A DNA stretch of 64,000 nt from an uncultured Blautia sp. (GCA_934424575.1 CAKRXU010000008.1:7179-71178); one strand, 5' to 3'. Numbered from the stretch's first letter, positions 10,874-52,475 are shown. Notes: generated by a model from the sequence alone, not told the origin. Made by a program: numbers and translations.

Positions 10874-12247
10874 ATGAAATATTTACTCAAAAATGGAACG
10901 GTAGTATCCGGAGAAAAATCGGAGAAACTCGATGTCCTGGTGGATGGAGAGAAGATCATAAATGTGGGAAAGGATCTTGAAGCAGGCGATGCAGAAGTGA
11001 TGGATGTCGAAGGAAAGCTTCTGTTCCCGGGATTTATCGACGGCCATACACATTTTGACCTGGAAGTGGCAGGAACTGTCACGGCAGACGACTTTGAGAC
11101 AGGAACAAGAGCTGCGCTTCTCGGAGGAACGACACTTGTCATTGATTATGCATCACAGGACAAAGGCGGTCACACTCTGAAAGAAGGTCTCGATAAGTGG
11201 CACAAAAAAGCCGATGGCAAATGCTCCTGCGACTATTCTTTCCATATGTCTATCGTAGAATGGAACGATGAGACAGAGGCGGAAGTACAGGATATGATCG
11301 ACCATGGAATCACCAGCTTCAAGCTTTACATGACCTATCCGGCAATGATCGTAAATGACTGCGATATGTATAAGATCCTCAAGAAACTTGGCGAATGTGG
11401 ATGTTTCGCCGGAGTTCACTGTGAAAACGCGGGTGTGATCGACGCCCTGATCTCCGAAGCGAAGAAAGAAGGACGTCTCGGACCGGAAAACCATCCGCTC
11501 GTAAGACCGGATACCATGGAAGCAGAGGCTGTCCACCGTCTTCTCGTGATCGCCAAAGAAGCCAACGCACCAGTCATGGTCGTTCACCTGACCAACAAGA
11601 AAGCTTACGAAGAGGTCATGAACGCAAGGAAAAACGGACAGGAAGTCTATGCAGAGACCTGCCCGCAGTATCTCCTTCTGGAAGACAGCGTATACTCCAA
11701 ACCGGACTTTGAGGGTGCTGTTTATGTATGTGCACCGCCGATCCGCAAGAAAGAAGATCAGGACTGCCTGTGGAAAGCTCTGGCAGACGAGGAGATCCAG
11801 ACGGTAGCGACAGACCAGTGCAGCTTCACTCTGGCACAGAAAGCCCTCGGAAAAGAGGATTTTACCAAGATCCCGGGAGGACTTCCGGGCGTACAGACAA
11901 GAGGAACCCTTCTCTATACTTACGGAGTTAAGACCGGAAAGATCACCCAGGAACAGATGTGCAAAGTCCTCTGCGAAAATCCTGCCAAACTGTACGGCGT
12001 ATATCCAAACAAAGGTGCGATCACAGCAGGAAGTGATGCGGATATCGTAGTCCTCGATCCATCGAAAGAAAGCGTGATCTCCGCAGCGACTCATGCATAC
12101 AATACAGACAATAACCCGTTTGAAGGCTTTAAGCTTGAATGCGGCATCGACAAAGTTTTTCTTCGCGGAAACCTCGCAGTCGAGGATGGGAAGCTTGTGA
12201 AAGAAAAACTCGGCAAATACATCGCCAGAGGCAAAAAACAGCTTTGA
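10874..12247 (+). CDS. hyuA: D-phenylhydantoinase / dihydropyrimidinase-family amidohydrolase (YgeZ/HyuA)
   Basis: The ATG at 10874 has a GGGAGG SD, so the track start at 10838 is rejected. MKYLLKNGTVVSG...PGFIDGHTHFDL carries the metal-binding HxH motif. Confidence 0.9.
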   Translation: MKYLLKNGTVVSGEKSEKLDVLVDGEKIINVGKDLEAGDAEVMDVEGKLLFPGFIDGHTHFDLEVAGTVTADDFETGTRAALLGGTTLVIDYASQDKGGHTLKEGLDKWHKKADGKCSCDYSFHMSIVEWNDETEAEVQDMIDHGITSFKLYMTYPAMIVNDCDMYKILKKLGECGCFAGVHCENAGVIDALISEAKKEGRLGPENHPLVRPDTMEAEAVHRLLVIAKEANAPVMVVHLTNKKAYEEVMNARKNGQEVYAETCPQYLLLEDSVYSKPDFEGAVYVCAPPIRKKEDQDCLWKALADEEIQTVATDQCSFTLAQKALGKEDFTKIPGGLPGVQTRGTLLYTYGVKTGKITQEQMCKVLCENPAKLYGVYPNKGAITAGSDADIVVLDPSKESVISAATHAYNTDNNPFEGFKLECGIDKVFLRGNLAVEDGKLVKEKLGKYIARGKKQL

Positions 12248-38562: not shown

Positions 38563-39114
38563 ATGCATAAATATAAGAAATTTTTGACAGTCTGTTCTCT
38601 GGCAGCACTATTATCTTCCTGTACTGTGCCATTTGTCTGTATGGCGGCAGCAGACACGGCAGAAACACAGGCAGTAGAATTTGACAAAGAAGATGGAGAA
38701 TATTCCATCCAGGTAGATCTGGAGGGTGGAAGCGGCAAGGCGAGCGTGACTTCTCCGACACTTTTTACTGTGAAGGACGGAATGGGATATGCACAGATCC
38801 AGTGGAGCAGTTCCAACTATGACTACATGATCGTGGACGGAGAGAAATATCTCCCGACAAATGAGGAGGGCATGAACTCTGTATTTGAGATCCCGATCCT
38901 CACACTTGATGAGGCAATGCCGGTGATCGCAGACACCACGGCGATGGGAGCACCTCACGAGATCGAATATACGCTGACTTTTTATTCCGATTCCATCGGT
39001 TCCAAGAGCCAGCTTCCGCAGGAGGCAGCCAAGAGAGTCGTTGGCGTTGCAATGGTGATCATCGTTGGCGGTGGGATCCTGAATTATTTTGTCAACAAAC
39101 GCAACAGATGTTAG
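38563..39114 (+). CDS. small cell-surface protein: signal/lipobox N-terminus, ~120-aa beta-rich Met-containing domain, C-terminal TM anchor
   Basis: 183 aa. LLSSC lipobox-like signal, core EYSIQVDLEGGSGKASVTSP...YAQIQWSSSNYDYMIVDGEKY..., then VVGVAMVIIVGGGILNYFV plus a basic tail. I cannot assign a family with confidence. Confidence 0.6.
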   Translation: MHKYKKFLTVCSLAALLSSCTVPFVCMAAADTAETQAVEFDKEDGEYSIQVDLEGGSGKASVTSPTLFTVKDGMGYAQIQWSSSNYDYMIVDGEKYLPTNEEGMNSVFEIPILTLDEAMPVIADTTAMGAPHEIEYTLTFYSDSIGSKSQLPQEAAKRVVGVAMVIIVGGGILNYFVNKRNRC

Positions 39115-39211: not shown

Positions 39212-39336
39212 GAACTCATCAAGAAGAGAGTAACTGGCCGGTTACACCTCAGAAAAAAAGAGTAAAAGAAAATGAAACTGACGGAAAAAGAGAAGGAAAT
39301 CCGTCCACTAAAAAATCAAAATGAGGTGTAAACACA

Positions 39337-40734
39337 ATGAAAGAAAAAGTTCAGGTATTTGGAAGGTTTTTGAGCGGAATGGTCATGCCGAACATCGGCG
39401 CATTCATCGCATGGGGGCTCATCACAGCGCTTTTTATCGAGACAGGATGGTGTCCGAATGAGAAACTCGCACAGTTTGTAACTCCGATGTCAACCGTACT
39501 GCTGCCGCTTCTGATCGCATACACTGGCGGTTCTGCCGTAGCAGGACAGCGCGGCGGCGTGATCGGTGCGATCGCGACCATGGGTGTGATCGTCGGTTCT
39601 GACATCCCGATGTTCATCGGTGCCATGATCGTCGGACCGCTGGCTGCATGGATCATCAAGAAATTTGACAAAGCAGTTGAGGGTCACATCAAAGCCGGCT
39701 TTGAAATGCTGGTAAATAACTTTTCACTTGGTATCATCGGTGCGATCCTTGCATGTCTTGCCATGTATGGAGTTGCCCCGCTCGTAACAGGAATGAACTC
39801 CGTTATGAGAGCCGGTGTAGATGTCTTTGTTTCACACGGACTTCTTCCGCTGGCAAGTATCTTTATCGAACCTGCAAAAGTATTATTCTTAAACAACGCG
39901 ATCAACCACGGGATCTTATCCCCAATGGGAATCCAGCAGGTAGAGGAAACGGGAAAATCTATTTTCTTCCTGCTTGAAGCAAACCCGGGGCCGGGACTTG
40001 GAATCCTGCTTGCTTACTGTATCGCAGGCAAAGGAAATGCGAAGAGCTCTGCACCTGGAGCAGTGATCATCCATTTCCTCGGCGGAATCCATGAAATCTA
40101 TTTTCCGTACATCCTTATGAACCCGCTGCTTCTGATCTCTGTCATCGCAGGCGGCGCAAGTGGAATCTTCTGCTTCAACTTATTTAACGTAGGTCTTACT
40201 GCACCGGCTTCACCGGGAAGTATCATCGCGATCATGATGATGGCAGAAAAACACAGCTATTTTGGACTGATCGTCGGTGTTGCAGTGGCAGCACTTGTCT
40301 CTTTTGCAATCTCCGTGCCGATCCTCAAATTCATGGGCAAGGATACATCTCTGGAAGATGCACAGCGTCAGAAAGATGCCATGAAAAAACAGGCAAAAGG
40401 AATTGCAGCAGAAACAGCAGCCACTGTACCGGCAGCAAATACAGGAAAAGTAACAAAGATCGCTTTTGCATGCGATGCAGGAATGGGCTCCAGCGCAATG
40501 GGCGCAACGGTCCTCAAGAAAAAACTTGCAGCAGCAGGTCTTGAGGGAATCGAAGTTATCCACACACCGGTATCCAGCATCCCGGCAGATGTACAGATCG
40601 TTGTCACACATGAGGAACTGGGAGAGCGCGCAGCACACAGCAATCCGAATGCAGAGCGCATCCTGATCACAAACTTCCTTGCCGCACCGGAATATGCAAC
40701 ACTGGTAGAAAATCTGAAAAAGAGAAATTTATAA
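39337..40734 (+). CDS. mtlA: PTS mannitol-family transporter subunit IICB
   Basis: 465 aa. MKEKVQVFGRFLSGMVMPNIGAFIAWG, GGIHEIYFPY, and the EIIB Cys motif FACDAGMGSSAMGA. Confidence 0.9.
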   Translation: MKEKVQVFGRFLSGMVMPNIGAFIAWGLITALFIETGWCPNEKLAQFVTPMSTVLLPLLIAYTGGSAVAGQRGGVIGAIATMGVIVGSDIPMFIGAMIVGPLAAWIIKKFDKAVEGHIKAGFEMLVNNFSLGIIGAILACLAMYGVAPLVTGMNSVMRAGVDVFVSHGLLPLASIFIEPAKVLFLNNAINHGILSPMGIQQVEETGKSIFFLLEANPGPGLGILLAYCIAGKGNAKSSAPGAVIIHFLGGIHEIYFPYILMNPLLLISVIAGGASGIFCFNLFNVGLTAPASPGSIIAIMMMAEKHSYFGLIVGVAVAALVSFAISVPILKFMGKDTSLEDAQRQKDAMKKQAKGIAAETAATVPAANTGKVTKIAFACDAGMGSSAMGATVLKKKLAAAGLEGIEVIHTPVSSIPADVQIVVTHEELGERAAHSNPNAERILITNFLAAPEYATLVENLKKRNL

Positions 40735-40907
40735 ATTATAGATGCCCTCTAAAATTTTAATATAACCGCAACATATCCCACACGTTAGTTATGCGCCTTA
40801 AATGGAGCGAATTGACGGGTGGGATTGTTGTATGATAAAATTATTTACAGAACAAAAACGGGTAGCAGACAGGCGGCGGGGAAATCTGTCTGACGCGGGG
40901 GAACGTT

Positions 40908-42431
40908 ATGAATGTGATACAGAAAACAGGAAAATTTTATTCAAGGATCATCATGAAAAATATCGGCACTTTTGTCTTTATCGGTCTTTTGTCCGTGGTA
41001 TTTCAGACCAAGGGATGGTTTCCGAATGAAGATATCTATGCGATCTCGCAGGTCGCCTATCGCTATGTCCTGCCATGTATGATCGCCTATGAAGGAGGAA
41101 ATCTTCTCAGTGACTCTTTTGGAGGGCTGGCGGCAGTTATGGCACTCTGTGGGATCCTCGTGCGGGATCCGGAGGCAGGGATCTTTGGGGCGATGGTCTC
41201 AGCTCCACTCGGAGGATACCTCTGGAAAAAAGAGCGGGAATTTCTGGAGCGGGACTGTTTCGCAGAGACCAAGATGCTGTTCCGAAATTTGCTCCTGGGG
41301 CTTACCGGGGCGGTTCTTGCGGTCGGGGAATATTATCTTCTGGCAGAAGCAGTGACTGTCTTTGCAGTAGCAGCCGGCAGCTGCATCGGATGGATCATGG
41401 AGCATGGCTATATCGCAGTCCTGAATGTCCTGATCGAGCCGGCGAAGGTTTTTTTCCTGAATAATATCATGAACCATGGGATCCTCGTTCCGCTGGGGAT
41501 GAGCCAGGCAGAGCAGACGGGAGGTTCGCTCCTTCTCCTTCTTGAGACGAACCCGGGACCGGGACTTGGGATGCTGCTTGGACTGCTTTTATACAAAAGA
41601 AAAAATGTCAAACGCCGTCAGGAATTGGCGACAGCTGCATTTACACAGGCGATCGGAGGGATCCATGAAGTTTATTTTCCCTTTGTACTTGCGGATCTGG
41701 GCCTTCTGCTTCCATTGATCGTGGGTGGTGTTGCGGGAAGTATCTGGTTTTCCGTTTTTCACTGTGAGACAGCGGGCGTGATCTCGCCGGGAAGTGTTCT
41801 GACCATTCTGATCATGGCGGGAAGAAACAGTATGCTGCCGGTGCTTGGAGGAATCCTTGTTTCTACGGCTGTGTCCGGCGTTGGTAGCTATCTGTATCTG
41901 TGCTGGAGAGGTGAGGGGAAAGAAAAGCTGCAGCCAGAAGCTATGAAGACAGATGGTGCACAGAATGTAGTGCAGTTGAAAACAATGGAGCCAGAAGTAT
42001 TGCAGCCAGAAATACCGGAGAGTGAGAAGCAGGAAGAACTTGAGAAAGAAAATACAGAAATGTCCGGGTCGGAGCGTGAAGTGGAAACTGCATCAGAACA
42101 GGAGGAGAAACCCATGCCGGATAATATTTACCAGAACTTACATAAAATAGGCTTCGTCTGTGACGGAGGAATGGGCTCCAGCGCAATGGGAGCGGCTCTG
42201 TTCCGACGCGCACTCAAAACAGCCGGTATCACTGGGATCCAGGTGGAAGTTTATGCTGCAGACCTGATCGAAGAGGACATTGATCTGATCGTCTGCCAGA
42301 AAGAATTTTATGCGCTGAACCCACAGCTGCATGAGAAAGCCTGTCATGTGATCGCCGGATTTACCGACAGAGAAGAATACACAAAACTGATCCAGTGCAT
42401 CCAGGATGCACAGAATGGGGGAACAAGATGA
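40908..42431 (+). CDS. second, divergent PTS mannitol-family EIICB paralogue with a long acidic IIC-IIB linker
   Basis: 507 aa, co-linear with the first (GGIHEVYFPF; FVCDGGMGSSAMGA) but clearly diverged. The ~70-aa E/Q/K-rich linker is encoded at ~41910-42125. ATGA overlap with mtlR. Confidence 0.8.
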   Translation: MNVIQKTGKFYSRIIMKNIGTFVFIGLLSVVFQTKGWFPNEDIYAISQVAYRYVLPCMIAYEGGNLLSDSFGGLAAVMALCGILVRDPEAGIFGAMVSAPLGGYLWKKEREFLERDCFAETKMLFRNLLLGLTGAVLAVGEYYLLAEAVTVFAVAAGSCIGWIMEHGYIAVLNVLIEPAKVFFLNNIMNHGILVPLGMSQAEQTGGSLLLLLETNPGPGLGMLLGLLLYKRKNVKRRQELATAAFTQAIGGIHEVYFPFVLADLGLLLPLIVGGVAGSIWFSVFHCETAGVISPGSVLTILIMAGRNSMLPVLGGILVSTAVSGVGSYLYLCWRGEGKEKLQPEAMKTDGAQNVVQLKTMEPEVLQPEIPESEKQEELEKENTEMSGSEREVETASEQEEKPMPDNIYQNLHKIGFVCDGGMGSSAMGAALFRRALKTAGITGIQVEVYAADLIEEDIDLIVCQKEFYALNPQLHEKACHVIAGFTDREEYTKLIQCIQDAQNGGTR

Positions 42432-44533
42432 AGTTAAGTAATATTTCGCCCCGAGTCAGCCAGATCCTGCAGATTCTGCTGGAACAGAATGCACCGATCT
42501 CTGTGAAAGCACTTGCAGAGCAGATGAATTTAAGCAAGCGCACGATCCAGAGGGAGATGGATTCTGTCAATGCGATTCTTAAGGGATACGAAATTATATT
42601 GAATTCCAAAACAGGAGTCGGAGTCTGGCTTGAAGACAGCGAGGACAAAAAACAGGAGCTGCGGCAGGATCTGTCGATGGATGACCGTCTGGATGTCAGC
42701 AACCGTGAAGAACGCAGGAAGCGTCTGACGCTTGAGATCCTCAAGGAAAAAGAACTCCGCAAACTGTTTTATTACAGCAGCCGTTTCCAGGTAAGTGAGG
42801 CGACGATCAGTGCAGATCTGGAGGCAATCGAAGGGTGGCTGACCAGATACGGGCTCCGGATCACGCGCAAGCCGGGAAGCGGGATTTCCATTTCCGGAAG
42901 TGAAGAAGCATACCGCCGCGCGATTCGTGCATTTATCAACGAAAATATCGATACGCATATGCTGAGAGAAGCCTACGAGTCTACAGAGAGTGACGCAGAG
43001 GGTTATGCATCGCTGCAGTACGGAGATATCGGTAAGATCTTGAATGATGATATCGTGAAGCGTGTGATCGCCTGCCTGTCAGGGATGGACAATACCCGTG
43101 TGATGACTCTGACAGAGAGTTCCTATGTCGGTCTGGTGATCCATATTGCGATCGCGATCAACCGGATCCTCAAGGATGAGGTGATCGACACGGATGCATC
43201 CTGGCAGCAGGGACTTGTGGAGGATGCAGATTATCACCTTGCAGAGCAGATCGTAGAAGAGCTGGAGGAAGAGTTTGAGATCGAGATCCCGGCAGTGGAG
43301 GTTTCCTATATCTGCCTGCACGTCAAGGGAGCAAAGCATGAAAAGATCCAGTGGGACGGACAGAAGATCAATGCGATCGAGAACAGGGAACTCCGGGGGC
43401 TTCTTAATGAAATGGTGGATGCTTTTGACCCGGAGAGTGCATATCTTCTGAAGCAGGACGAAGAATTTATCCAGGGGCTTCTCGCACACTTGCGTCCGAC
43501 TCTGATCCGTCTGGATCATGGCATGCAGATCCAGAATCCGGTGCTGGATGATATCAAACAGAACTATGCAGATATCTACCAGAAATGCCTGAATGTTGCC
43601 AAAGTGCTGGAACACTTTACCGGAAAGCAGGTTCCGGAGGAAGAGACAGGATTTTTGACAGTACATTTCGGCGCGGCTATGGTGCGTCAGGAAGGACGCA
43701 AAGAAGAAATCCGTCAGGTGGATATTGGAATTGTCTGCTCAAGCGGGATCGGTATTTCTCGTCTGATGCTGTCGAAGCTGAATAAGCTGTTTGGTGACCG
43801 CGTAAATCTTACTGCCTATGGAAAAAACGACATTACTTCTTATGTACAGGGAAAAACAGACTTTTTTGTATCCAGCCTTCCAATCGAAAAAGCAGAGATC
43901 CCGGTGATCCATGTCAATCCGCTTCTGAATGAGGAGGACATTGACCAGATCCGCAAGATGATCTACCAGTATCAGCGGATGCCAGGGAAACATAAGCAGG
44001 AAGATCTGTTTTCCGTGCAGCTTGATCAGATCAACCAGATGGCGGCACAGATTAATATTGTGATCAAGGATATGGAGCTTTTTCATGTAGATGTGGATAT
44101 TACCTTTGAGGAACTTCTGCATCAGATCGGAGAGAGGCTTTCTCCGTATTCCGACCGAAGCCAGATCATTCAGGAAGACCTGATGAGACGGGAGCAGGTG
44201 TCTTCGCAGATCTTTGCGGAGTTTGGCTTTGCGCTTCTTCATACCAGGACGAAGGGTGTGACGCGCCCGGTATTTGCCGTGTGCATGCCGGAGGAAAATG
44301 TGGCATTTAAAGACCCGTATTTCAAACAGATCACGGTGGCTTTTGTCATGCTGGTACCGGACGATGAGCTGGTAAAGATCAACAATGACATCATGGGACA
44401 CATCAGCGGCATGCTCATCGAAGAACCGGAATTTATGGAGGTCGCAGAGCAGGGCGACAAGGAGCAGATCCGCACGCTGCTGTCCAAACATCTAAAACAA
44501 TATTTCAGGAAATATCTTTCAGGACTGTCATAA
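42428..44533 (+). CDS. mtlR: PRD-containing transcriptional activator of the MtlR family (HTH, Mga-like, PRD1, PRD2, EIIB-Gat-like, EIIA-Mtl-like)
   Basis: ATG at 42428 (the track start at 42395 is rejected). The HTH is ISVKALAEQMNLSKRTIQREM. The EIIB-like Cys is in IGIVCSSGIGISRLM. ~700 aa, as for MtlR. Confidence 0.85.
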   Translation: MKLSNISPRVSQILQILLEQNAPISVKALAEQMNLSKRTIQREMDSVNAILKGYEIILNSKTGVGVWLEDSEDKKQELRQDLSMDDRLDVSNREERRKRLTLEILKEKELRKLFYYSSRFQVSEATISADLEAIEGWLTRYGLRITRKPGSGISISGSEEAYRRAIRAFINENIDTHMLREAYESTESDAEGYASLQYGDIGKILNDDIVKRVIACLSGMDNTRVMTLTESSYVGLVIHIAIAINRILKDEVIDTDASWQQGLVEDADYHLAEQIVEELEEEFEIEIPAVEVSYICLHVKGAKHEKIQWDGQKINAIENRELRGLLNEMVDAFDPESAYLLKQDEEFIQGLLAHLRPTLIRLDHGMQIQNPVLDDIKQNYADIYQKCLNVAKVLEHFTGKQVPEEETGFLTVHFGAAMVRQEGRKEEIRQVDIGIVCSSGIGISRLMLSKLNKLFGDRVNLTAYGKNDITSYVQGKTDFFVSSLPIEKAEIPVIHVNPLLNEEDIDQIRKMIYQYQRMPGKHKQEDLFSVQLDQINQMAAQINIVIKDMELFHVDVDITFEELLHQIGERLSPYSDRSQIIQEDLMRREQVSSQIFAEFGFALLHTRTKGVTRPVFAVCMPEENVAFKDPYFKQITVAFVMLVPDDELVKINNDIMGHISGMLIEEPEFMEVAEQGDKEQIRTLLSKHLKQYFRKYLSGLS

Positions 44534-44550
44534 ACGGCAGTCCTTTTTTG
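44521..44550 (+). terminator. rho-independent terminator after mtlR
   Basis: AGGACTG (44521-44527) pairs with CAGTCCT (44538-44544), followed by T6. The stop codon sits in the loop. Confidence 0.8.
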
Positions 44551-44578
44551 CTGTTATAGAGCGTCTTTTTTCTTCAAT

Positions 44579-44605
44579 TTTGGCACTAAGGGATGGTGCC
44601 AAATC
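44579..44605 (+). promoter_or_regulatory. copy 2 of the 27-nt mtl palindrome (candidate MtlR operator)
   Basis: TTTGGCACTAAGGGATGGTGCCAAATC is identical to 39141-39167. It ends 14 nt before the -35, exactly as copy 1 does. Confidence 0.65.
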
Positions 44606-44619
44606 CCCCTTTCTTTAAA

Positions 44620-44649
44620 TTGAAATTTCCCATTTGCCATGTGTATAAT
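44620..44649 (+). promoter_or_regulatory. putative promoter of mtlF-kinase-dehydrogenase unit
   Basis: TTGAAA (44620-44625), 18 nt, TATAAT (44644-44649). Confidence 0.6.
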
Positions 44650-44728
44650 AAAGTCACAAAGAGGAAAGCAAAAACAAATCGGAACTTCAAAAAATAGAAA
44701 ATGAAAAGAATTCAGGGAGGTAACTTAC

Positions 44729-45217
44729 ATGTTTTTTAAATCAAAAAAAGAGAAAGCTCAGAAAGCAGAAACAGCACCGGTGATCGAAAAGAAAGAACTT
44801 CTGTACCGTGAAAACATTCGCACAGGCTGCGCACCGGCGACAAAGCAGGAAGCAATCCTGGCAGCAGGAAAGATGCTTGTAGAAACAGGTTATGTAGAAC
44901 CGGAATATGCAGAGGCGATGCTCGAGAGAGAAAAGACATGTTCCACATTCATGGGAAACGGACTTGCTCTTCCACATGGTGTTGAAGCAGCAAAGAAGAG
45001 AGTTTTACAGTCAGGGATCTCCGTACAGACCTTCAAAGAACCGATTGACTGGGACGGCAATCCGGTTCGCATCGTGATCGGGATCGCAGGAGTCGGAGAT
45101 GCACATCTCGACATCCTGGCACAGATCGCAGAAGCAATGCTTGATGAAGAAGTGAGTGCAAACATCGCAGATTATGACGCAGATAAAATTTACAAAGTCC
45201 TCACAGGAAAGGAGTAA
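44729..45217 (+). CDS. mtlF: PTS mannitol-family EIIA component
   Basis: 162 aa. The phosphorylatable His is in GNGLALPHG, with an IVIGIAG block and a ~25-aa N-terminal extension. Confidence 0.85.
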   Translation: MFFKSKKEKAQKAETAPVIEKKELLYRENIRTGCAPATKQEAILAAGKMLVETGYVEPEYAEAMLEREKTCSTFMGNGLALPHGVEAAKKRVLQSGISVQTFKEPIDWDGNPVRIVIGIAGVGDAHLDILAQIAEAMLDEEVSANIADYDADKIYKVLTGKE

Positions 45218-45221
45218 AGAA

Positions 45222-46151
45222 ATGATCATAACAGTAACAATGAACCCGGCGATCGACAAGACCGTAGAGATCGAACAGCTCGTGCCAAACGGACTGAACC
45301 GCATCCAGAAGGTAGAATACGATGCCGGAGGAAAAGGAATCAACGTTTCCAAAACGATCCACGAACTTGGCGGTGAGAGCCTTGCGATGGGATTCCTCGG
45401 AGGAAATGCAGGAAAGACGATCGAGAACGTACTTACATCCTGGGACATCCAGCACGATTTTATCTGGGTGGAAGGCGAGACAAGAACCAACACCAAAGTT
45501 TTTGAAAAGAGCGGCGGTGTGACAGAATTAAATGAGCCAGGACCGGTCATCAGCGAAGCACAGGTGGAAGAACTGATCCAGAAAATCTGTGAGCACACAG
45601 ACAAAGAAACACTGGTCGTTCTCGCAGGAAGCATTCCAGCAGGTGTCGACAAAAACATTTACGCAGCGATCACAGAGCGTGTCCATGAAAAAGGCGGTTC
45701 CGTCCTGATGGATGCAGACGGAGAACTGTTCCGCAATGCGCTGAAAGCATCTCCGGACATCATCAAACCGAATCAGGTAGAACTGGAAGAATACATCGGA
45801 GCAGATTACAAGCTTTCCATGGGAGAACTCAAAGATCTGGCAGAAAAATTCCAGAACAACGGAATCAAAACCGTAGCGATCTCCATGGGAAAAGGCGGTG
45901 CGATGATCGTAAGAGACAAATTTGCGGCAAGATGCCCGGCATTATCTGTCAAAGCACACTCCACCGTAGGAGCCGGAGATGCAATGGTAGCAGCCCTTGC
46001 ATATTCCTGGGACAAAAAACTCGGTGATGAAGAAACCGTAAGACTCTGCATGGCAACTTCCGCAGGAGCCGTGACAACAGTCGGAACAAAACCGCCGGCA
46101 AGAACAGTTGTAGATGAACTGATCCCGCAGGTGGAGATGGAACTCCTGTAA
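45222..46151 (+). CDS. 1-phosphofructokinase-family hexose-phosphate kinase (PfkB/FruK/LacC family)
   Basis: ATG at 45222 with an AGGAAAGGAG SD. MIITVTMNPAIDKT, DAGGKGINVS and GAGDAMVAAL motifs. Specificity (fructose-1-P versus tagatose-6-P) cannot be read from the sequence. Confidence 0.85.
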   Translation: MIITVTMNPAIDKTVEIEQLVPNGLNRIQKVEYDAGGKGINVSKTIHELGGESLAMGFLGGNAGKTIENVLTSWDIQHDFIWVEGETRTNTKVFEKSGGVTELNEPGPVISEAQVEELIQKICEHTDKETLVVLAGSIPAGVDKNIYAAITERVHEKGGSVLMDADGELFRNALKASPDIIKPNQVELEEYIGADYKLSMGELKDLAEKFQNNGIKTVAISMGKGGAMIVRDKFAARCPALSVKAHSTVGAGDAMVAALAYSWDKKLGDEETVRLCMATSAGAVTTVGTKPPARTVVDELIPQVEMELL

Positions 46152-46225
46152 GGAGCAGTTTACTGCGGAACAATCCGTAAATATGGAGTAAATATAATAG
46201 AAAAAATAGAAAAGGAGATTTTATC

Positions 46226-47491
46226 ATGAAAACAAAAGCAGTGAGAATGTATGGAACAAGAGATTTAAGACTGGAAGAGTTTGAATTACCGCAGATTAAA
46301 GACGACGAGATCCTCGTAAAGATCATGAGTGACAGCATCTGCATGTCCACCTACAAACTGGCAGAGCAGGGCAAGAAACACAAAAGAGCACCACAGAACA
46401 TCGACACCAACCCGATCATCATCGGACATGAATTCGCAGGCGTGATCGTAGAAGTCGGTGAAAAATGGAAAGATCAGTTCAAACCGGGAATGAAATTTGC
46501 ACAGCAGCCGGCACTGAACTACAAAGGAAGCCTTGCATCTCCTGGATATTCCTATGAATACTTCGGTGGAGCCTGCACTTACTGCATCATCCCTCACGAA
46601 GTTATGGAACTTGGCTGCCTGATGCCATACGAAGGTGACAGCTTCTTCGGAGCTTCCCTCGGTGAGCCGATGAGCTGTATCATCGGAGGATACCACGGAA
46701 ACTATCACACAAACAAACGTAACCATGACCTTTCCGTAGGAACAAAAGCAGGCGGCGATATCATCATCCTCGGCGGCTGCGGACCGATGGGACTTGGTGC
46801 AGTCAGCTACGGTATCCAGATCGAAAACCGCCCGAAACGAATCGTCGTAACAGACATTGATGATGCCAAGATCGAGCGTGCAAGAGAGGTTATCCCGGAA
46901 GCAAAAGCAGCAGAAAACGGCGTAGAACTTCTTTATGTAAACACCGCAAAAATGGCTGATCCGGTCGAAGAATTAAAAGCGATCACCGGAGGCAAAGGCT
47001 ATGATGATGTATTCGTATACATTCCAAACAGAGCGGTTGCAGAAATGGGTGACAAGCTCCTTGCATTCGATGGCTGCATGAACTTCTTTGCAGGCCCGAC
47101 AGACAACCAGTTCAAAGCAGAGATCAATCTGTACAACTGCCATTATACAAGCACACATATTCTCGGTACTACAGGTGGAAACAACGATGACCTGATCGAA
47201 GCGAATGAACTGGCTGCCAAAGGAAAGATCGAACCGGCAGTTATGGTAACACATGTCGGCGGTATCGACAGTATCGCAGAGACAACCCTGAACCTGCCAA
47301 AGATCCCGGGCGGCAAGAAGTTAAGCTATACACAGTTCAACATGCCGATGACAGCAATTGAAGATTTTGGAAAACTCGGCGAGACCGATCCACTCTTCAA
47401 GAAACTGGACGAGATCTGCAAAGCAAACCGCGGTCTGTGGAGTGCAGAAGCAGAGAGAGTATTATTCGATCACTTTGGTGTGGAATACTAA
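46226..47491 (+). CDS. large (421-aa) zinc-dependent medium-chain dehydrogenase, L-sorbose-1-phosphate-reductase (SorE)-like
   Basis: MKTKAVRMYGTRDLRLEEFELPQIKDDEILVKIMSDSICMSTYK...NPIIIGHEFAG...LGGCGPMGLGA. Its length and N-terminus match my recollection of enterobacterial SorE rather than MtlD or GatD. Confidence 0.7.
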   Translation: MKTKAVRMYGTRDLRLEEFELPQIKDDEILVKIMSDSICMSTYKLAEQGKKHKRAPQNIDTNPIIIGHEFAGVIVEVGEKWKDQFKPGMKFAQQPALNYKGSLASPGYSYEYFGGACTYCIIPHEVMELGCLMPYEGDSFFGASLGEPMSCIIGGYHGNYHTNKRNHDLSVGTKAGGDIIILGGCGPMGLGAVSYGIQIENRPKRIVVTDIDDAKIERAREVIPEAKAAENGVELLYVNTAKMADPVEELKAITGGKGYDDVFVYIPNRAVAEMGDKLLAFDGCMNFFAGPTDNQFKAEINLYNCHYTSTHILGTTGGNNDDLIEANELAAKGKIEPAVMVTHVGGIDSIAETTLNLPKIPGGKKLSYTQFNMPMTAIEDFGKLGETDPLFKKLDEICKANRGLWSAEAERVLFDHFGVEY

Positions 47492-47514
47492 AAACAGATA
47501 AAAAATATATTTTT

Positions 47515-47546
47515 TGCCGGCGGGAATTTCCAGCCGGCATTTTTTA
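47515..47546 (+). terminator. rho-independent terminator
   Basis: TGCCGGC (47515-47521) pairs with GCCGGCA (47533-47539), followed by T6. Confidence 0.85.
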
Positions 47547-47634
47547 TATGGAATTAAGAAAATTTAAGAAAATATTCAGAGAAAAGTAATATTATTATGT
47601 AAAAATGATAAGAGCAAAGGCAGGTGAACAAGTA

Positions 47635-49155
47635 ATGGATAATGTACTAAAATATTTAGAAAAAACAGCAGAGAAATTTCCAGAAAAGACAGCTGTTGAT
47701 GATGGAGATCAGCAGTTTACATATCAGGAACTTCTGGAGCGGGCAAGATGCTTTGGACGCTCTTTTCTGGACAAGACAACTCCGGGCAGACCGGTCGCGA
47801 TTCTGAGAGAAAAAGGCTCAGAAGTTCTGGCGGCTATGTTTGGAGTTGTTTATGCAGGATGTTTTTATGTAATGATCGATCCGGAGCAGCCACTTGAAAG
47901 ACTGAAAGACATCCTTGCAGTCCTGGATACAGATCTGGTAGTCACAGACGGCAGATACAGGCATCAGCTTGACGATGCGGGTTATCAGGGACAGATCTAT
48001 CTTCTGGATCAGGAATGTGCAGAAAATCCTCTTACAGAGCAGGATATGGAGAAACTGAAAGAAAGACGCTCCGGGGCAAAGAATACAGATCTTTTGTATG
48101 GTATTTTTACTTCAGGTTCCACGGGCAAACCGAAATGTGTTGCAGTCAACCATCAGTCAGTTATTGACTTTATCGGTCATTTTACGAAGCAGTTCCAGAT
48201 TACAGAGCAGGACCGTATTGGCAATCAGGCACCGTTTGATTTTGATGTTTCCGTAAAGGATATTTATTCTGCGATCATGACAGGCGCGACTCTGGTGCTG
48301 GTTCCGAAGAAACTGTTTGCACTTCCTCCGAAACTTCTTGATTACCTTTGTGACAAAAAGATCACAGTTATGATATGGGCGGTTTCAGCTCTCTGTCTGA
48401 TCTCATCGCTCAAAGGTCTGAAATATAAGATCCCGGAAGATGCAAGGATGATCATGTTCAGCGGTGAAGTTATGCCGGTGAAGCAGATGAGACTCTGGCA
48501 GCAGGCTCTCCCGCAGACCAAATTTATCAATCTGTATGGACCATCAGAAATTACCTGTAACTGTACATGGTATCCGGTACAGAGAGAATTTCAGGATGGC
48601 GAAGTGATCCCGGCAGGCAGGGCTTTTGATGGAAGAACGGTATTTCTCCTTGATGAGGCTGGTGCAGAGATCACGGAAGCCGGCAAAACAGGTGAGATCT
48701 GTGTTGCAGGTGAGTCACTGGCAGATGGTTACTATCATAATGAAGAGGAAACTGCACGCAGGTTTGTTCAGGGGACGATCGCTTCTACCGGACAGAATAC
48801 AAGATATTATAAGACAGGTGATCTTGGATATTATGGCGAGGATGAGAACCTGTATTTTGCCGGAAGAAAAGATTTTCAGATCAAACATATGGGACACAGG
48901 ATCGAGCTGGAAGAGATTGAAAGAGCTTTTGAGAAACTTGACGGAGTTTCAAGATGCTGCTGTCTGTTTGACAAAAAACGTAACAAACTTCTGGGATTTT
49001 ATACTGGCGACAGCGAAGAAAAAGAAGTTCATCAGGAACTCAAACGTTATCTTCCGTTATACATGATCCCAGCAAAGATCCGCAGGATCGAAAAGATGCC
49101 TCTGAATAAAAATGGCAAGATCGATCGCAAATATCTTGCTCAGGAATGGGAGTAA
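47635..49155 (+). CDS. stand-alone amino-acid adenylation enzyme (DltA / NRPS A-domain-like carrier-protein ligase)
   Basis: ATG at 47635 with an AGGTGA SD. Motifs FTSGSTGKPK, NLYGPSE, YKTGDLG, GRKDFQIKHMGHRIELEEIE, PLNKNGKIDRK. FDFDVSV carries the alpha-amino-binding Asp. Confidence 0.85.
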   Translation: MDNVLKYLEKTAEKFPEKTAVDDGDQQFTYQELLERARCFGRSFLDKTTPGRPVAILREKGSEVLAAMFGVVYAGCFYVMIDPEQPLERLKDILAVLDTDLVVTDGRYRHQLDDAGYQGQIYLLDQECAENPLTEQDMEKLKERRSGAKNTDLLYGIFTSGSTGKPKCVAVNHQSVIDFIGHFTKQFQITEQDRIGNQAPFDFDVSVKDIYSAIMTGATLVLVPKKLFALPPKLLDYLCDKKITVMIWAVSALCLISSLKGLKYKIPEDARMIMFSGEVMPVKQMRLWQQALPQTKFINLYGPSEITCNCTWYPVQREFQDGEVIPAGRAFDGRTVFLLDEAGAEITEAGKTGEICVAGESLADGYYHNEEETARRFVQGTIASTGQNTRYYKTGDLGYYGEDENLYFAGRKDFQIKHMGHRIELEEIERAFEKLDGVSRCCCLFDKKRNKLLGFYTGDSEEKEVHQELKRYLPLYMIPAKIRRIEKMPLNKNGKIDRKYLAQEWE

Positions 49156-49160
49156 TGGTT

Positions 49161-50336
49161 ATGCAGACAAAAGAACTGGAAAAGGCAGCAGGATTTGGGA
49201 CACCACTTTATGTATTCCATGAAGAAGAACTGAAAGAAACCACCGGACGTCTGCAGGCGACACTGGGTAAGGTCGCAGGTCTTTGTTATGCAATGAAAGC
49301 GAATCCTTTCCTTGTAAAGATAATGGAGCAGCTTGTTGACCGTATTGAGGTCTGTTCCATGGGAGAATTTGCAATCTGTGAGGAACAAAAAATAGCACCA
49401 GAGAAAATTCTGGTATCAGGCGTCCTCAAAAAGGCAGAAAAGCTCAATGCAGTTCTGGATAAATATGGGAATTCCTGTATGTATACAGCAGAATCCATGC
49501 AGCAGTTTGAGCTCCTGAAAAACTGGTCAATGGAACATAAGCAGGAGATTTCTGTATTTCCAAGACTCACCAGTGGAAATCAGTTTGGAATGGATCAGAA
49601 AACAATAGAAAAGCTGGTCGAAAACAGACAGGAGTATCCATTCCTTAAAATCCGGGGAATTCATTATTTTTCCGGTACACAGAAACGTTCTGTCAGCAAA
49701 ATCCAGAAAGAACTGGAAAAGCTGGATGTCTTTCTTGGTGAACTGAAAGAAAAATATAGATTTGAGCCAGAAGAACTGGAATATGGTCCGGGTCTGCCGG
49801 TTTCTTATTTTGATCCCTCAAAAGAAATTGGAGAAGAGGGGCTTATGGAGATCGTCCGGACAGTGGAACAGATGCATTTTTCCGGAAAGATCACTTTTGA
49901 GATGGGAAGAGCTTTTGCGGCAGACTGTGGTTATTATCTCACAAAGATCATGGATGTCAAATCAAGTGATGACAAAAACTATTGCATTACGGATGGTGGG
50001 ATCCATCATCTTAATTATGACGGGCAGATCAGAGGAATGTATGAACCTCCTATGGAAATCCTTGCCAAGGAGCGACAGGGAGAAGAAAAGAACTGGACGA
50101 TCTGCGGAAGCCTTTGTACAGTAAATGACATCATGGTGCAGAAACTGGCCATTACAGAGCCAAAACCAGGAGATATACTGGTATTTAAAAGAACGGGAGC
50201 GTATTCTTCGATGGAAGGAATGCTGTTGTTCTTAAGTCACAGCCTTCCTAAAATTCTGCTGTATAATAAAGAAGAAGGTTTCAGACAGATAAGAAAAGCT
50301 TATCAGACTTATAAATGGAATATGGAGGAAAAATAA
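49161..50336 (+). CDS. fold-type-III PLP-dependent decarboxylase (Orn/DAP/Arg decarboxylase family 2)
   Basis: PLP Lys in CYAMKANPF, plus EYGPGL and CGSLCTVNDI motifs. ~392 aa. The start is ambiguous (49146, 49155 or 49161); I chose 49161 because GGGAG lies 8 nt upstream. Confidence 0.8.
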   Translation: MQTKELEKAAGFGTPLYVFHEEELKETTGRLQATLGKVAGLCYAMKANPFLVKIMEQLVDRIEVCSMGEFAICEEQKIAPEKILVSGVLKKAEKLNAVLDKYGNSCMYTAESMQQFELLKNWSMEHKQEISVFPRLTSGNQFGMDQKTIEKLVENRQEYPFLKIRGIHYFSGTQKRSVSKIQKELEKLDVFLGELKEKYRFEPEELEYGPGLPVSYFDPSKEIGEEGLMEIVRTVEQMHFSGKITFEMGRAFAADCGYYLTKIMDVKSSDDKNYCITDGGIHHLNYDGQIRGMYEPPMEILAKERQGEEKNWTICGSLCTVNDIMVQKLAITEPKPGDILVFKRTGAYSSMEGMLLFLSHSLPKILLYNKEEGFRQIRKAYQTYKWNMEEK

Positions 50337-50338
50337 CA

Positions 50339-50566
50339 ATGGAAACTTTACTTGAAATCTTAAATGATATTGATGAAACTGTAGACTGGGAAAACGAAAC
50401 AGCACTGATCGATGATCGTATCCTGGATTCTTTTGGTGTGATCAGCCTGATCTCTGAACTGGAAGATCAGTTTGAGGTTGAGATCGATGCATCCGAAATT
50501 ATTCCGGAGAATTTCAATTCTGCAGATGCTATGTGGAAAATGATCCAGAGATTACAGGAAAACTAA
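50339..50566 (+). CDS. acyl/peptidyl (D-alanyl-type) carrier protein
   Basis: 75 aa. ATG at 50339 with a GGAGGA SD. The phosphopantetheine Ser is in LDSFGVISL, and the helical layout is DltC-like. Confidence 0.8.
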   Translation: METLLEILNDIDETVDWENETALIDDRILDSFGVISLISELEDQFEVEIDASEIIPENFNSADAMWKMIQRLQEN

Positions 50567-50574
50567 ATATAACA

Positions 50575-50611
50575 CGCAAAAACGAAGGGCTGGTTTCAGT
50601 GAAACCAGTCC
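50575..50611 (-). terminator. terminator of bioA (hairpin overlaps the bioA stop); may also stop the convergent cassette
   Basis: The minus strand reads GGACTGGTTTC act GAAACCAGCCC followed by TTCGTTTTTG. Confidence 0.65.
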
Positions 50612-51780
50612 TTCATTACGTCAAAGATCTGAATCAGTTCCCCGTCGGAGATCACATAAGGGACCATAGAATACATATAGTTTAAGAACGGTCTGCAGAA
50701 GACACCACGTTCATAGGCAAACTGCTGGAAGCCTTCCAGGGTCTTGGGATCGTGGACTTCCACGCAGGTACAGCCGCCCATGACACGGACTTCTTTGATG
50801 CGTGGGTCAGAGAAATTTTTCATTTCCTGACGGGAGATCTGTTCGATATGCCGGATCTTGCTCATATAATCGTCACGCTCAAAGATTTCAATTCCCTTAA
50901 GTGCAACTGCACAGGCAAGTGGATTTCCCATAAAGGTCGGACCGTGCATCAGGGCAAGGCGGTCATCGTCGCTGTAAAAAGCGTCAAAGACTTTGTGGTT
51001 TGCGACCGTGACAGCATGTCCGATATAACCTCCGGTCAGGGCTTTTCCGAGAACCAGGATGTCCGGAAGGACAAGGTCTGCCACAAAGCGGTTTCCGGTA
51101 CGGCCAAATCCAGTAGCAACCTCGTCAAAGATCAGAAGTACATCATACTGATCACACAGTTCTCTGGCACGTTTCAGGAAAGAAATATCATACATCCGCA
51201 TGCCGCCGGCACCCTGAAGGAGCGGTTCTACGATAAAGCAGTTCAGCCTGTCGTGGTAAAGTTCAAATGCTTCCTCAAGCGCCGGGATTTCTGTCGGGAT
51301 ATGGACAACGCCTTCTTTTTTGTCAAAAGCGAAATGATAATCTTCGTCATCGCCGACTTCCATTGCCTTGAAGGTGTCTCCGTGGTAGGCATGTTCCAGA
51401 GCCAGCACCAGAGGGCGTTTTCTTCCCTGATTAGTGTTGTACTGGAGAGCCATCTTAAGAGAAACTTCTACTGCAACACTTCCTGAGTCGGAAAAGAAGC
51501 AGTAGTCCAGGTCACCCGGAAGAAATTCCTGGAGTTTATCAGAAAGTTTTTCTACCGGCTCATGGGTAAGACCGCCGAGCATTACATGGCAGAAATGGTC
51601 AGCCTGTTCTTTGATGGCGTTGGTCAGTTCCGGATGTTTGTAGCCGTGGATCATGCACCACCAGGAAGAGATCGAATCGATCAGTTTCTGGTCTTTGGTG
51701 TAGAGATACACGCCTTCTGCATCCAGGATCTTATAAGGTTCTTTCATTGTTTTCATCTGTTCATAAGGATACCATATCAT
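50596..51780 (-). CDS. bioA: adenosylmethionine-8-amino-7-oxononanoate aminotransferase
   Basis: 394 aa. MIWYPYEQM...SSWWCMIHGYKHPEL...SDSGSVAVEVSLKMALQY is co-linear with E. coli BioA. Confidence 0.95.
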   Translation of the reverse strand: MIWYPYEQMKTMKEPYKILDAEGVYLYTKDQKLIDSISSWWCMIHGYKHPELTNAIKEQADHFCHVMLGGLTHEPVEKLSDKLQEFLPGDLDYCFFSDSGSVAVEVSLKMALQYNTNQGRKRPLVLALEHAYHGDTFKAMEVGDDEDYHFAFDKKEGVVHIPTEIPALEEAFELYHDRLNCFIVEPLLQGAGGMRMYDISFLKRARELCDQYDVLLIFDEVATGFGRTGNRFVADLVLPDILVLGKALTGGYIGHAVTVANHKVFDAFYSDDDRLALMHGPTFMGNPLACAVALKGIEIFERDDYMSKIRHIEQISRQEMKNFSDPRIKEVRVMGGCTCVEVHDPKTLEGFQQFAYERGVFCRPFLNYMYSMVPYVISDGELIQIFDVMKDWFH

Positions 51781-52475
51781 CTGATCTTCACCTCGTCATA
51801 AAGTGCACTCAGCACATCTGCATCTGTCTCAAGTTCTGTGGCATTGTCCTGTACCTTCGCAAGCACAGGAAGCCCTGTCATATGTTCACACATGAAAATA
51901 TTATCTTCTTCCATGATGTTTCCCGGATGGTAATGATTAAAAATGATGCCCTTAAGCGGAAGGTTGTGTGCCTTCATATATTCGAAAGTCAGGACAACAC
52001 TGTTGATCGTGCCAAGGCCGGCATCGGCAACAAGGATACTGGAAAGCCCAAATTCCCGGATTACATCTTCAAGCTGGATCTTGCACTCATCAAAACAGAG
52101 AGGGCAGAGGATTCCGCCGCTTCCTTCCATCGTGATGTAGTCATAGTTTTCTGCGACTTTTGCAAAACCTTCGCGGACAACAGCGAGGTCAACAGGATTT
52201 CCTTCCACGCGGGAGGCAAGGTGTGGTGACCAGGCATTTTCGTACACATAAGGGCACATTTCGCCAAGCGGCTGTGAGATTCCAGACATCTGCCGTACAA
52301 AAAGTGCATCACCCGGGATCAGGCTTCCGTCTGGCCGGCGGTCATTTCCACTCATGGCTGCCTTGTAATATGCAGGATTCTTGCCTGTCTGTGCAAGTTT
52401 TTTTACGATCAGTCCGGCGATGAAGGTTTTGCCGATGTCTGTACCGGTTCCGGTGAGAAAAATTGCTTTGCTCAT
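51777..52475 (-). CDS. bioD: dethiobiotin synthase
   Basis: 232 aa with the P-loop GTGTDIGKT. ATGA overlap with bioA. Confidence 0.95.
   Translation of the reverse strand: MSKAIFLTGTGTDIGKTFIAGLIVKKLAQTGKNPAYYKAAMSGNDRRPDGSLIPGDALFVRQMSGISQPLGEMCPYVYENAWSPHLASRVEGNPVDLAVVREGFAKVAENYDYITMEGSGGILCPLCFDECKIQLEDVIREFGLSSILVADAGLGTINSVVLTFEYMKAHNLPLKGIIFNHYHPGNIMEEDNIFMCEHMTGLPVLAKVQDNATELETDADVLSALYDEVKIR

Follow-up and report, generated by a model that had tools for sequence, protein, structure and literature searches.

A selected adenylase–decarboxylase–carrier protein triad in an uncultured Blautia sp. is probably the cytoplasmic half of a Dlt-like envelope-acylation operon

Overview

The window analyzed in this study, a stretch of 64,000 nucleotides (nt) from an uncultured Blautia sp. 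(GCA_934424575.1 CAKRXU010000008.1:7179-71178), contains three co-directional genes spanning 47635-50566 that encode an amino-acid adenylase, a decarboxylase of fold type III that relies on pyridoxal 5'-phosphate (PLP), and a small carrier protein (Table 1; positions are counted from the first letter of the window). We consider it probable, though well short of assured, that this triad represents the cytoplasmic part of an operon of five genes for Dlt-like acylation of the envelope, of which the two membrane genes have been lost here, and that the allele has been exchanged and is still selected. A reading of this region made from its sequence alone (hereafter, the sequence-only reading) had regarded it as a self-contained cassette with a missing acceptor enzyme. 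Contrary to this view, relatives were found to carry genes for a membrane-bound O-acyltransferase (MBOAT) as well as an SGNH protein immediately downstream of the triad, and the window lineage has deleted both.

The five-gene operon in relatives

Relatives of the decarboxylase were detected in 299 genomes when each species was scanned through a single genome, and the best 80 loci were kept, together with metagenome contigs; the top match of this species set had 89% identity, and the window's own species was not among the loci kept. These best 80 of the 299 genomes belonged almost entirely to Lachnospiraceae, including Blautia, Mediterraneibacter, Schaedlerella, Sporofaciens, Extibacter, Merdimonas, Roseburia lenta, Suipraeoptans, and others. 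In the contigs first inspected, namely Muricomes sp. OA1, contigs with a Blautia liquoris protein, a 69%-identical lineage, and the two Blautia loci L006 and L009, the triad was directly followed by genes for an MBOAT of ~530 amino acids (aa) and for an overlapping ~330-aa protein without any Pfam match. L006 and L009 are syntenic with the window, with bioA-bioD-bioB-bioY on the right, and possess all five genes. Tblastn with the five proteins further revealed the order adenylase, decarboxylase, carrier, MBOAT, and SGNH in nearly every locus having enough downstream DNA, the exceptions being the window lineage, the locus L038, and a third locus, L002, with a short internal deletion. When the MBOAT and SGNH proteins of the relatives were used as tblastn queries, no homologue was found across the whole 64-kb window, and the sequence-only statement that no transferase is present thus held within 64 kb.

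The only match of the MBOAT in NCBIfam and the Protein Data Bank (PDB) was DltB (TIGR04091, 142 bits versus a cut-off of 375). The protein keeps the WRRWH catalytic-His motif, and all of the 79 complete sequences terminate in [VI][DE][LM]IYA[GN]F (...LIYAGF). This ending matches the FxYxxF motif and would accordingly be a putative acyl shuttle, a hexapeptide which is located on the microprotein DltX in Dlt and is fused C-terminally in PatA-type MBOATs (PMC12148441). No DltX-like open reading frame (ORF) was seen, without a search having been aimed at one. The fifth protein has an N-terminal helix and invariant GDS and D..GDH motifs. Sequence and profile searches gave no PDB or NCBIfam match for it, and the significant fold matches of its AlphaFold model (predicted local distance difference test, pLDDT, 92; predicted template-modelling score, pTM, 0.89) were almost all SGNH/GDSL proteins, DltD and PatB included. 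Judged from these motifs and from the predicted fold, the hallmarks of an MBOAT-SGNH acyltransferase (WRRWH, IYAGF, and the SGNH fold) are present in the relatives and not in the window, and given the identities of these two proteins, the complete operon would thus constitute an acyl-transfer system of the MBOAT/SGNH type that is fed by a carrier protein.

An OmpR-type response regulator and a histidine kinase were encoded downstream in 32 of the 65 loci, and in 10 of those 32 the genes for DedA, PssA, and Psd separated the SGNH gene from the two-component system, a context that fits envelope remodelling. In one of these loci (L001, 13971-16142) and nine others, the combination of DedA (VTT domain), a PssA-like CDP-alcohol phosphatidyltransferase, and phosphatidylserine decarboxylase provides a link to phosphatidylethanolamine synthesis. 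Two metagenome-assembled genomes, those of Candidatus Blautia stercoripullorum and Ca. Blautia merdavium, have two operon copies each on separate contigs (L052/L053 and L061/L063). In a search against phages, two faecal contigs labelled 'UNVERIFIED Bacteriophage sp.' were matched, one of which carries the five-gene operon; this contig (MT836540.1, 9810-15264), which derives from human faeces and is probably bacterial, contains a complete but distant operon with 38-49% identity (38% for the decarboxylase) and a response regulator.

Properties of the three proteins

The adenylase start at ATG 47635 with its AGGTG Shine-Dalgarno sequence gives a protein of 506 aa, as in the homologues. The protein matched AMP-binding and exceeded the cut-off of TIGR01733, the model for adenylation domains of non-ribosomal peptide synthetases (NRPSs), with 342.4 versus 317.4 bits. 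It scored below the cut-offs of both DltA models (TIGR01734, 296 versus 559.85 bits; NF003417, 305 versus 476 bits), which agrees with the sequence-only reading, where it had been taken for an amino-acid adenylation domain and not for a DltA orthologue. Its architecture is DltA-like even so.

The specificity code, as read from a HMMER alignment to LgrA, was D235 V236 K239 V278 M299 S301 L322 C330 N331 K517, in which position 278 is reliable only to ±1 residue. The Lys that had been noticed by eye four residues past the amino-binding Asp fell at code position 239 in this alignment. Conservation was scored in 82 distinct adenylase homologues of 50-100% identity: positions 235, 239, 301, 330, 331, and 517 were invariant in all 82, positions 236, 278, and 322 were kept in 79-81, and position 299 varied conservatively (Met in 59, Leu in 19). 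Because the code, position 299 aside, is invariant or nearly so throughout these homologues, the adenylase family appears to recognize a single, fixed substrate. When a Lys occupies the floor of the pocket, as it does in Glu-activating NRPS codes, an acidic group is implied. Asp235 suggests an amino group on the substrate and Lys239 an acidic group, and since both are invariant, the loaded residue would be expected to keep an amine and a free carboxylate.

The decarboxylase start was placed at 49161, 8 nt downstream of GGGAG and after a 5-nt gap from the adenylase, giving 391 aa; an alternative start at 49155, with a TAATG overlap, would give 393 aa. Both Orn_Arg_deC_N and Orn_DAP_Arg_deC were matched above the Pfam cut-offs. 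Among solved structures, the best sequence match was LysA (105 bits), closely followed by BtrK (99 bits), and with such nearly equal scores the protein is not placeable nearer to BtrK than to LysA or the reverse. The best fold matches of its structural model were SbnH, BtrK, and LysA, with TM-scores of 0.78-0.82 (0.82 for BtrK). The PLP-binding Lys, as had been expected, is invariant in the family, as are the His, ExGR, Cys, and GAY. By its domains, residues, and predicted fold alike, the protein is a member of the fold-III clade that comprises diaminopimelate (DAP) decarboxylase (DAPDC), BtrK, and SbnH, and the non-DAPDC members of this clade decarboxylate an amino-acid moiety joined to something larger (PMC7857480).

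In DAPDC, the Glu following the catalytic Cys binds the distal amine of DAP, and the E315T variant of Thermotoga maritima DAPDC loses most of its activity on DAP and prefers substrates that lack a distal amine (PMC8277567). The decarboxylase family and BtrK carry L-C-T where LysA has C-E-S/T, and the distal-amine Glu is replaced by Thr in 83 and by Ser in 2 of 85 family members; taken together with the E315T data, DAP is therefore disfavoured as the substrate. The score against the lysA model (167 bits versus a cut-off of 297.9) likewise indicated that the protein is not LysA. The sequence-only proposal of a decarboxylation on the carrier looks reasonable, given that BtrK is the second-best solved relative; the tight linkage of the decarboxylase gene to that of the carrier and the acid-binding Lys in the adenylase pocket lend it further, indirect support.

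The carrier gene begins 2 nt past the decarboxylase stop codon. Its product scored just above the PP-binding cut-off (21.1 versus 20.8 bits) and below those for DltC (NF003464, 34.2 versus 68 bits; TIGR01688, 22.5 versus 52.35 bits), and DltC and VinL-type acyl carrier proteins (ACPs) were among its best PDB matches, with ~26-28 bits. The Ser of the DSFG motif, which had been picked out as the attachment site, is invariant in 79 homologues.

Could the PLP enzyme instead act on a free substrate ahead of the adenylase, either as a decarboxylase (for example, from DAP to Lys) or as a racemase that supplies a D-amino acid, in the way that alanine racemase feeds DltA? Some sources name the protein 'alanine racemase', the Ala_racemase_N model gave 27.7 bits, and LysA is the top PDB match. 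We nevertheless regard this possibility as unlikely, as the protein has the two-domain architecture of decarboxylases with both of their Pfam domains, and its best fold matches are all decarboxylases. Furthermore, the invariant Lys239 of the adenylase makes a basic substrate such as Lys less plausible and points to an acid group present at loading, and the lysA score and the replaced distal-amine Glu speak against DAP.

Loss of the membrane genes and selection on the triad

Alignment of the window with L009 and L006 revealed a precise loss of 2.6 kb that begins with the start of the MBOAT gene and ends with the stop codon of the SGNH gene and leaves 29 nt between the stop codons of the carrier gene and bioA. 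The three-gene form was also found in L011-L013 (~99% identical to the window) and in L096 and L097 (96%). In the latter two, the junction is identical to that of the window while the sequence to its left and right has scattered mismatches, and the deletion is therefore older than the split between these lineages.

All three ORFs are intact in six independent three-gene contigs. Between the window and L096, the three genes differ by 149 substitutions, 115 synonymous (Sd) and 34 nonsynonymous (Nd), corresponding to a synonymous divergence (dS) of 0.21 and a ratio of nonsynonymous to synonymous divergence (dN/dS) of 0.07, which is indistinguishable from the values of 0.05-0.075 between five-gene alleles. 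The window proteins are, moreover, unchanged at all 223 alignment columns whose conservation within the family is 97% or higher. Judging from these substitution patterns, the window triad is not decaying and has been under strong purifying selection since the deletion.

These observations bear directly on the suspicion that the triad is a non-functional remnant whose decay is pending after the loss of the transferases. The loss of the membrane half should leave a loaded carrier useless, and independent lesions occur in L038 and L002, the former with a few changes at otherwise invariant columns. However, such a remnant is quite unlikely, because dN/dS since the deletion equals that of complete operons; the intact ORFs, the unchanged conserved columns, and the occurrence of the allele in two genomic backgrounds tell against it as well.

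As for the two lesions themselves, L038 (8487-13524), which is labelled 'Prevotella sp. CAG:279' and looks like a Lachnospiraceae bin, has independently lost exactly the MBOAT and SGNH genes; its intact adenylase, decarboxylase, and carrier genes are followed by 105 nt and then by the response regulator and histidine kinase genes that elsewhere usually come after the SGNH gene. In L002, a strain 99.8% identical to Muricomes sp. OA1, a 167-nt deletion at 11257 (compared with L001, 11257-11423) takes the Ser region of the carrier and the MBOAT start, amounting to a strain-level knockout. The part of the operon from the carrier to the SGNH gene has evidently been lost repeatedly.

Mosaic structure of the locus

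When the window was compared with L006 and L018 (Blautia intestinihominis CLA-AA-H95), the flanks were 94.6-98% identical and 47554-50564 only 83.7%. The identity steps from 94.7% to 83.7% at ~47554-47565, past the upstream terminator, and the right step falls at 50564-50579, past the carrier stop codon. Against L006, bioA (50596-51780) has a dS of 0.19 and the adjoining triad one of 0.94, the switch occurring within tens of bases. L096 shows the converse, its cassette being 94.9% identical to the window and its left flank only 87%. Because the two mosaics are converse, the three-gene allele appears to have moved between Blautia backgrounds by homologous recombination. The horizontal acquisition proposed in the sequence-only reading is thus supported by the mosaic, but as an allelic replacement at a conserved site and not as the arrival of a new island. 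A plasmid search gave no match.

With this history in hand, the idea of a cassette that is self-contained by design, was acquired horizontally, and never had a transferase of its own, its product, a decarboxylated aminoacyl-carrier, being intended for some other acceptor enzyme, can be weighed. The lack of a transferase in 64 kb, the atypical composition, the mosaic insert, and purifying selection without a transferase in cis are all compatible with it. It is nevertheless very unlikely, as the four deep Blautia alleles at the same bioA-adjacent site are approximately equidistant (dS 0.8-1.1) and the other three are five-gene alleles. The more distant outgroups have five genes too, and, in the alignment, exactly the MBOAT and SGNH genes are deleted at the junction; basal and widespread three-gene forms would be the opposite of what the data show.

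Proposed mechanism

The gene identities, the prevalence of the five-gene form, the deletion, the selection, and the mosaic are shown by the data presented here; the reaction order, substrate, acceptor, and outlet in this strain that we infer are as follows. First, the adenylase would activate the side-chain carboxyl group of an acidic amino acid, most probably Asp or Glu, and load this residue as a thioester on the holo-carrier. For PLP-dependent alpha-decarboxylation, the amino group and the carboxylate on one and the same carbon must both be free, and the tether should therefore be formed via another carboxyl group. Second, the BtrK-like decarboxylase would strip the free alpha-carboxylate from the tethered residue to give a beta-alanyl or gamma-aminobutyryl thioester. 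Third, the DltB-like MBOAT would carry the acyl group across the membrane to the Tyr in the ...LIYAGF motif at its own C-terminus, and fourth, the membrane-anchored SGNH protein would hand it to a hydroxyl group of an envelope polymer, which would thereby gain a positive charge, as in D-alanylation. In the three-gene strain, the loaded carrier is presumably still useful, because the triad is under strong purifying selection; most simply, it would serve a transferase encoded elsewhere in the genome, and a second operon copy elsewhere in this organism is conceivable.

A variant of the same on-carrier mechanism would employ meso-DAP, of which one end is loaded and the other decarboxylated to yield a lysyl thioester. 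The decarboxylase lies equally close to LysA and BtrK, the distal carboxylate could be bound by Lys239, and a lysyl ester would bring two positive charges. This variant is, however, highly improbable in view of the Thr or Ser in place of the distal-amine Glu throughout the 85 family members, the loss of most DAP activity in the E315T enzyme, and the L-C-T that BtrK shares.

Several points weigh against the envelope-acylation reading and its mechanism. Every step of the latter is drawn from homology, invariant residues, and chemical logic. NRPS domains that activate Glu at its alpha-carboxyl also carry Lys at position 239, and an alpha-linked Glu could not undergo alpha-decarboxylation; which carboxyl group the adenylase activates cannot be read from its sequence. 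The decarboxylase model is of moderate quality (pLDDT 79), with poorly predicted active-site loops at 281-293 and 347-361. In addition, an MBOAT/SGNH or DltB/DltD pair acting in trans in this organism is an assumption, and the recurrent lesions in L038 and L002 show that the system is frequently lost, so that the window allele could be on the same path.

Comparison with known systems

The closest precedents for the three-protein logic are the vicenistatin (Vin), fluvirucin (FlvN), and bolagladin (Bol) systems. In Vin and Bol, an adenylase, a PLP decarboxylase, and a free-standing ACP cooperate such that an aspartate-type residue is loaded by its beta-carboxyl group and, while bound to the carrier, decarboxylated to yield a thioester of the beta-alanyl type (PMC11284099, PMC7756342). 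VinN, VinL, and VinO handle 3-methylaspartate linked by its beta-carboxyl group (PMC11284099), and BolO, BolC, and BolN convert isoaspartyl-ACP to beta-alanyl-ACP (PMC7756342); decarboxylation on the carrier has precedents in BtrK, VinO, and BolN (PMC7857480, PMC11284099, PMC7756342). The resemblance extends to the carrier, whose PDB matches include VinL-type ACPs. VinN activates the side-chain (beta) carboxyl group with Ser299 and Arg331 as carboxylate-binding residues; the adenylase of the window has invariant Ser301, Asn331, and Lys239, which need not correspond to this VinN pair. Unlike the present operon family, which has MBOAT and SGNH genes in the relatives and resides in gut Firmicutes, the Vin, FlvN, and Bol systems supply assembly lines of the polyketide or non-ribosomal type in Actinomycetes and Burkholderia.

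The butirosin proteins BtrI, BtrJ, and BtrK, which the sequence-only reading had offered as the precedent, remain pertinent through the homology to BtrK, but they are not the closest, since BtrJ is an ATP-grasp and not an adenylate-forming enzyme, and VinN/VinO/VinL and BolO/BolN/BolC come closer. BtrK is a fold-III enzyme of the DAPDC clade which acts on carrier-tethered Glu (from gamma-glutamyl-ACP to GABA-ACP, where GABA is gamma-aminobutyric acid) and has the L-C-T in common with the decarboxylase described here, whereas the butirosin product is delivered to an aminoglycoside side chain. An AMP-forming ligase and a fold-III decarboxylase also co-occur in exosortase A-associated exopolysaccharide loci, but the window proteins fall far under the respective cut-offs (TIGR03098, 193.6 versus 592.35 bits; TIGR03099, 167.6 versus 478.45 bits). 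Proteins of these two families are found in Proteobacteria with PEP-CTERM systems.

The likeness to Dlt lies in the free-standing adenylase that loads an amino acid on a small carrier and, in the relatives, in the DltB-type MBOAT, the membrane-anchored SGNH protein, and the acyl-Tyr shuttle motif. In contrast to Dlt, the components are under the Dlt equivalog cut-offs, the specificity code is of its own kind with a pocket Lys, an extra PLP decarboxylase gene stands between those of the adenylase and the carrier, and the shuttle motif is fused to the MBOAT of the relatives and not placed on DltX; in addition, the MBOAT and SGNH genes are absent from the window. Hence, ordinary D-alanylation by Dlt, or a part in biotin synthesis, can be practically dismissed even though DltA and DltC rank with the better-matching models and bioA, bioD, bioB, and bioY are adjacent, since the DltA and DltC scores reach about half of the cut-offs and Dlt has no decarboxylase, and since the adjacency to bioA is confined to one Blautia clade, in which the genes are convergent, with unrelated contexts in other genera.

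PatA/PatB, AlgI/AlgJ/AlgX, and WssH/WssI likewise combine an MBOAT having a fused C-terminal acyl-Tyr motif with an SGNH partner. They differ in that they use acetyl-CoA as the donor and are stated to do without a carrier (PMC12148441), whereas the operon family described here would join the fused motif to a carrier donor. Full-text literature searches, including combinations of MBOAT or Dlt with decarboxylase and carrier as well as the exosortase-associated triad, found no description of the five-gene operon, which thus apparently is undescribed so far.

D-Alanylation by Dlt is the textbook Gram-positive route to a less negative surface charge and to resistance against cationic peptides. MBOAT/SGNH pathways other than Dlt have been stated to operate without a carrier protein (PMC12148441, 2025), and the operon family, if our reading is true, would be a second carrier-dependent one; for the added on-carrier decarboxylation, the other known examples all come from the biosynthesis of antibiotics and lipopeptides. 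Put tentatively, and as a possibility more than an expectation, the Lachnospiraceae may thus possess a second carrier-dependent MBOAT/SGNH pathway distinct from Dlt, which decarboxylates Asp or Glu on the carrier and leaves an omega-aminoacyl ester on an envelope polymer, the three-gene allele being selected through a second outlet, either another transferase or a metabolic use. As the hosts are abundant gut commensals of humans and animals (Blautia, Mediterraneibacter, Schaedlerella, Roseburia lenta), such a modification could alter their response to host defensins, bile, and phages. Strains differ in whether they possess the membrane half, and alleles are exchanged between Blautia backgrounds, which is the pattern expected of a surface trait under fluctuating selection, and a selected triad without transferases poses a concrete puzzle that is open to testing.

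Boundaries and composition of the locus

As summarized in Table 1, the three genes and their 5- and 2-nt gaps were reproduced by ORF calls where the sequence-only reading had placed them, and the two terminators that it had placed at the borders were also confirmed, both hairpins folding far better than shuffled sequences. The left hairpin (47515-47539) had a folding energy of -19.5 kcal/mol (z -3.9 versus shuffles). The right one (50584-50614) had -22.7 to -24.1 kcal/mol (z -5.6 to -6.5) and was also scored as terminator-like; its U-tract lies on the bioA strand only, with none on the plus strand of the cassette. This right hairpin, which takes in the last codons and the stop codon of bioA, is kept in all Blautia relatives; ~17 nt upstream of this hairpin, the deletion has its right end.

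Table 1. Coordinates of the features in and around the triad, in window positions.
Feature	Position	Strand	Product length	Description
Intrinsic terminator	47515..47546	+		Hairpin followed by a U-run; ends the upstream phosphotransferase system (PTS)/PfkB/alcohol dehydrogenase (ADH) genes; left cassette edge
Left recombination breakpoint and cassette 5' region	47554..47634	+		Putative promoter; AGGTG Shine-Dalgarno sequence before ATG 47635
Adenylase	47635..49155	+	506 aa	Free-standing amino-acid adenylation enzyme (TIGR01733, code positions)
Decarboxylase	49161..50336	+	391 aa	Fold-III (alanine-racemase-fold) PLP enzyme of the DAPDC/BtrK/SbnH clade (Pfam, fold)
Carrier protein	50339..50566	+	75 aa	Phosphopantetheine-attachment Ser in LDSFG (PP-binding)
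Deletion junction and right recombination breakpoint	50567..50595			Site of the 2.6-kb MBOAT and SGNH genes in relatives
bioA terminator hairpin	50584..50614	-		Overlaps the bioA stop codon; sole hairpin 3' of the carrier gene

The GC content of the cassette was 42.6%, the lowest of any such stretch in the window (mean 47.0%, standard deviation 1.8%, in equal-sized windows), and the GC content at third codon positions was 40-42% in the triad versus 49-60% in the adjoining genes. The cassette had been described as AT-rich from a hand count; the contrast is real, but the computed windowed values make it smaller than that count suggested. An Rfam scan of 46000-52000 found no riboswitch or T-box that would name the amino acid, the only hit being a chance-level RcsR1 (E 0.12). 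Two small upstream ORFs, encoding a 136-aa low-complexity lipoprotein and a 183-aa protein without a family match, were considered as members of the system and rejected, as neither is consistently present among the loci.

Between the gene of this 183-aa protein (38563-39114) and the cassette, the window contains an 8.4-kb island (39316-47565) encoding PTS EIIC/IIB, a PRD regulator, EIIA, a PfkB kinase, and a zinc-type alcohol dehydrogenase. The island is present in the window, L006, and L018, and absent from L009, L016, and L096, in which the adenylase gene comes right after the 183-aa gene; all four combinations of the presence or absence of the island with the three- or five-gene state were found to occur.

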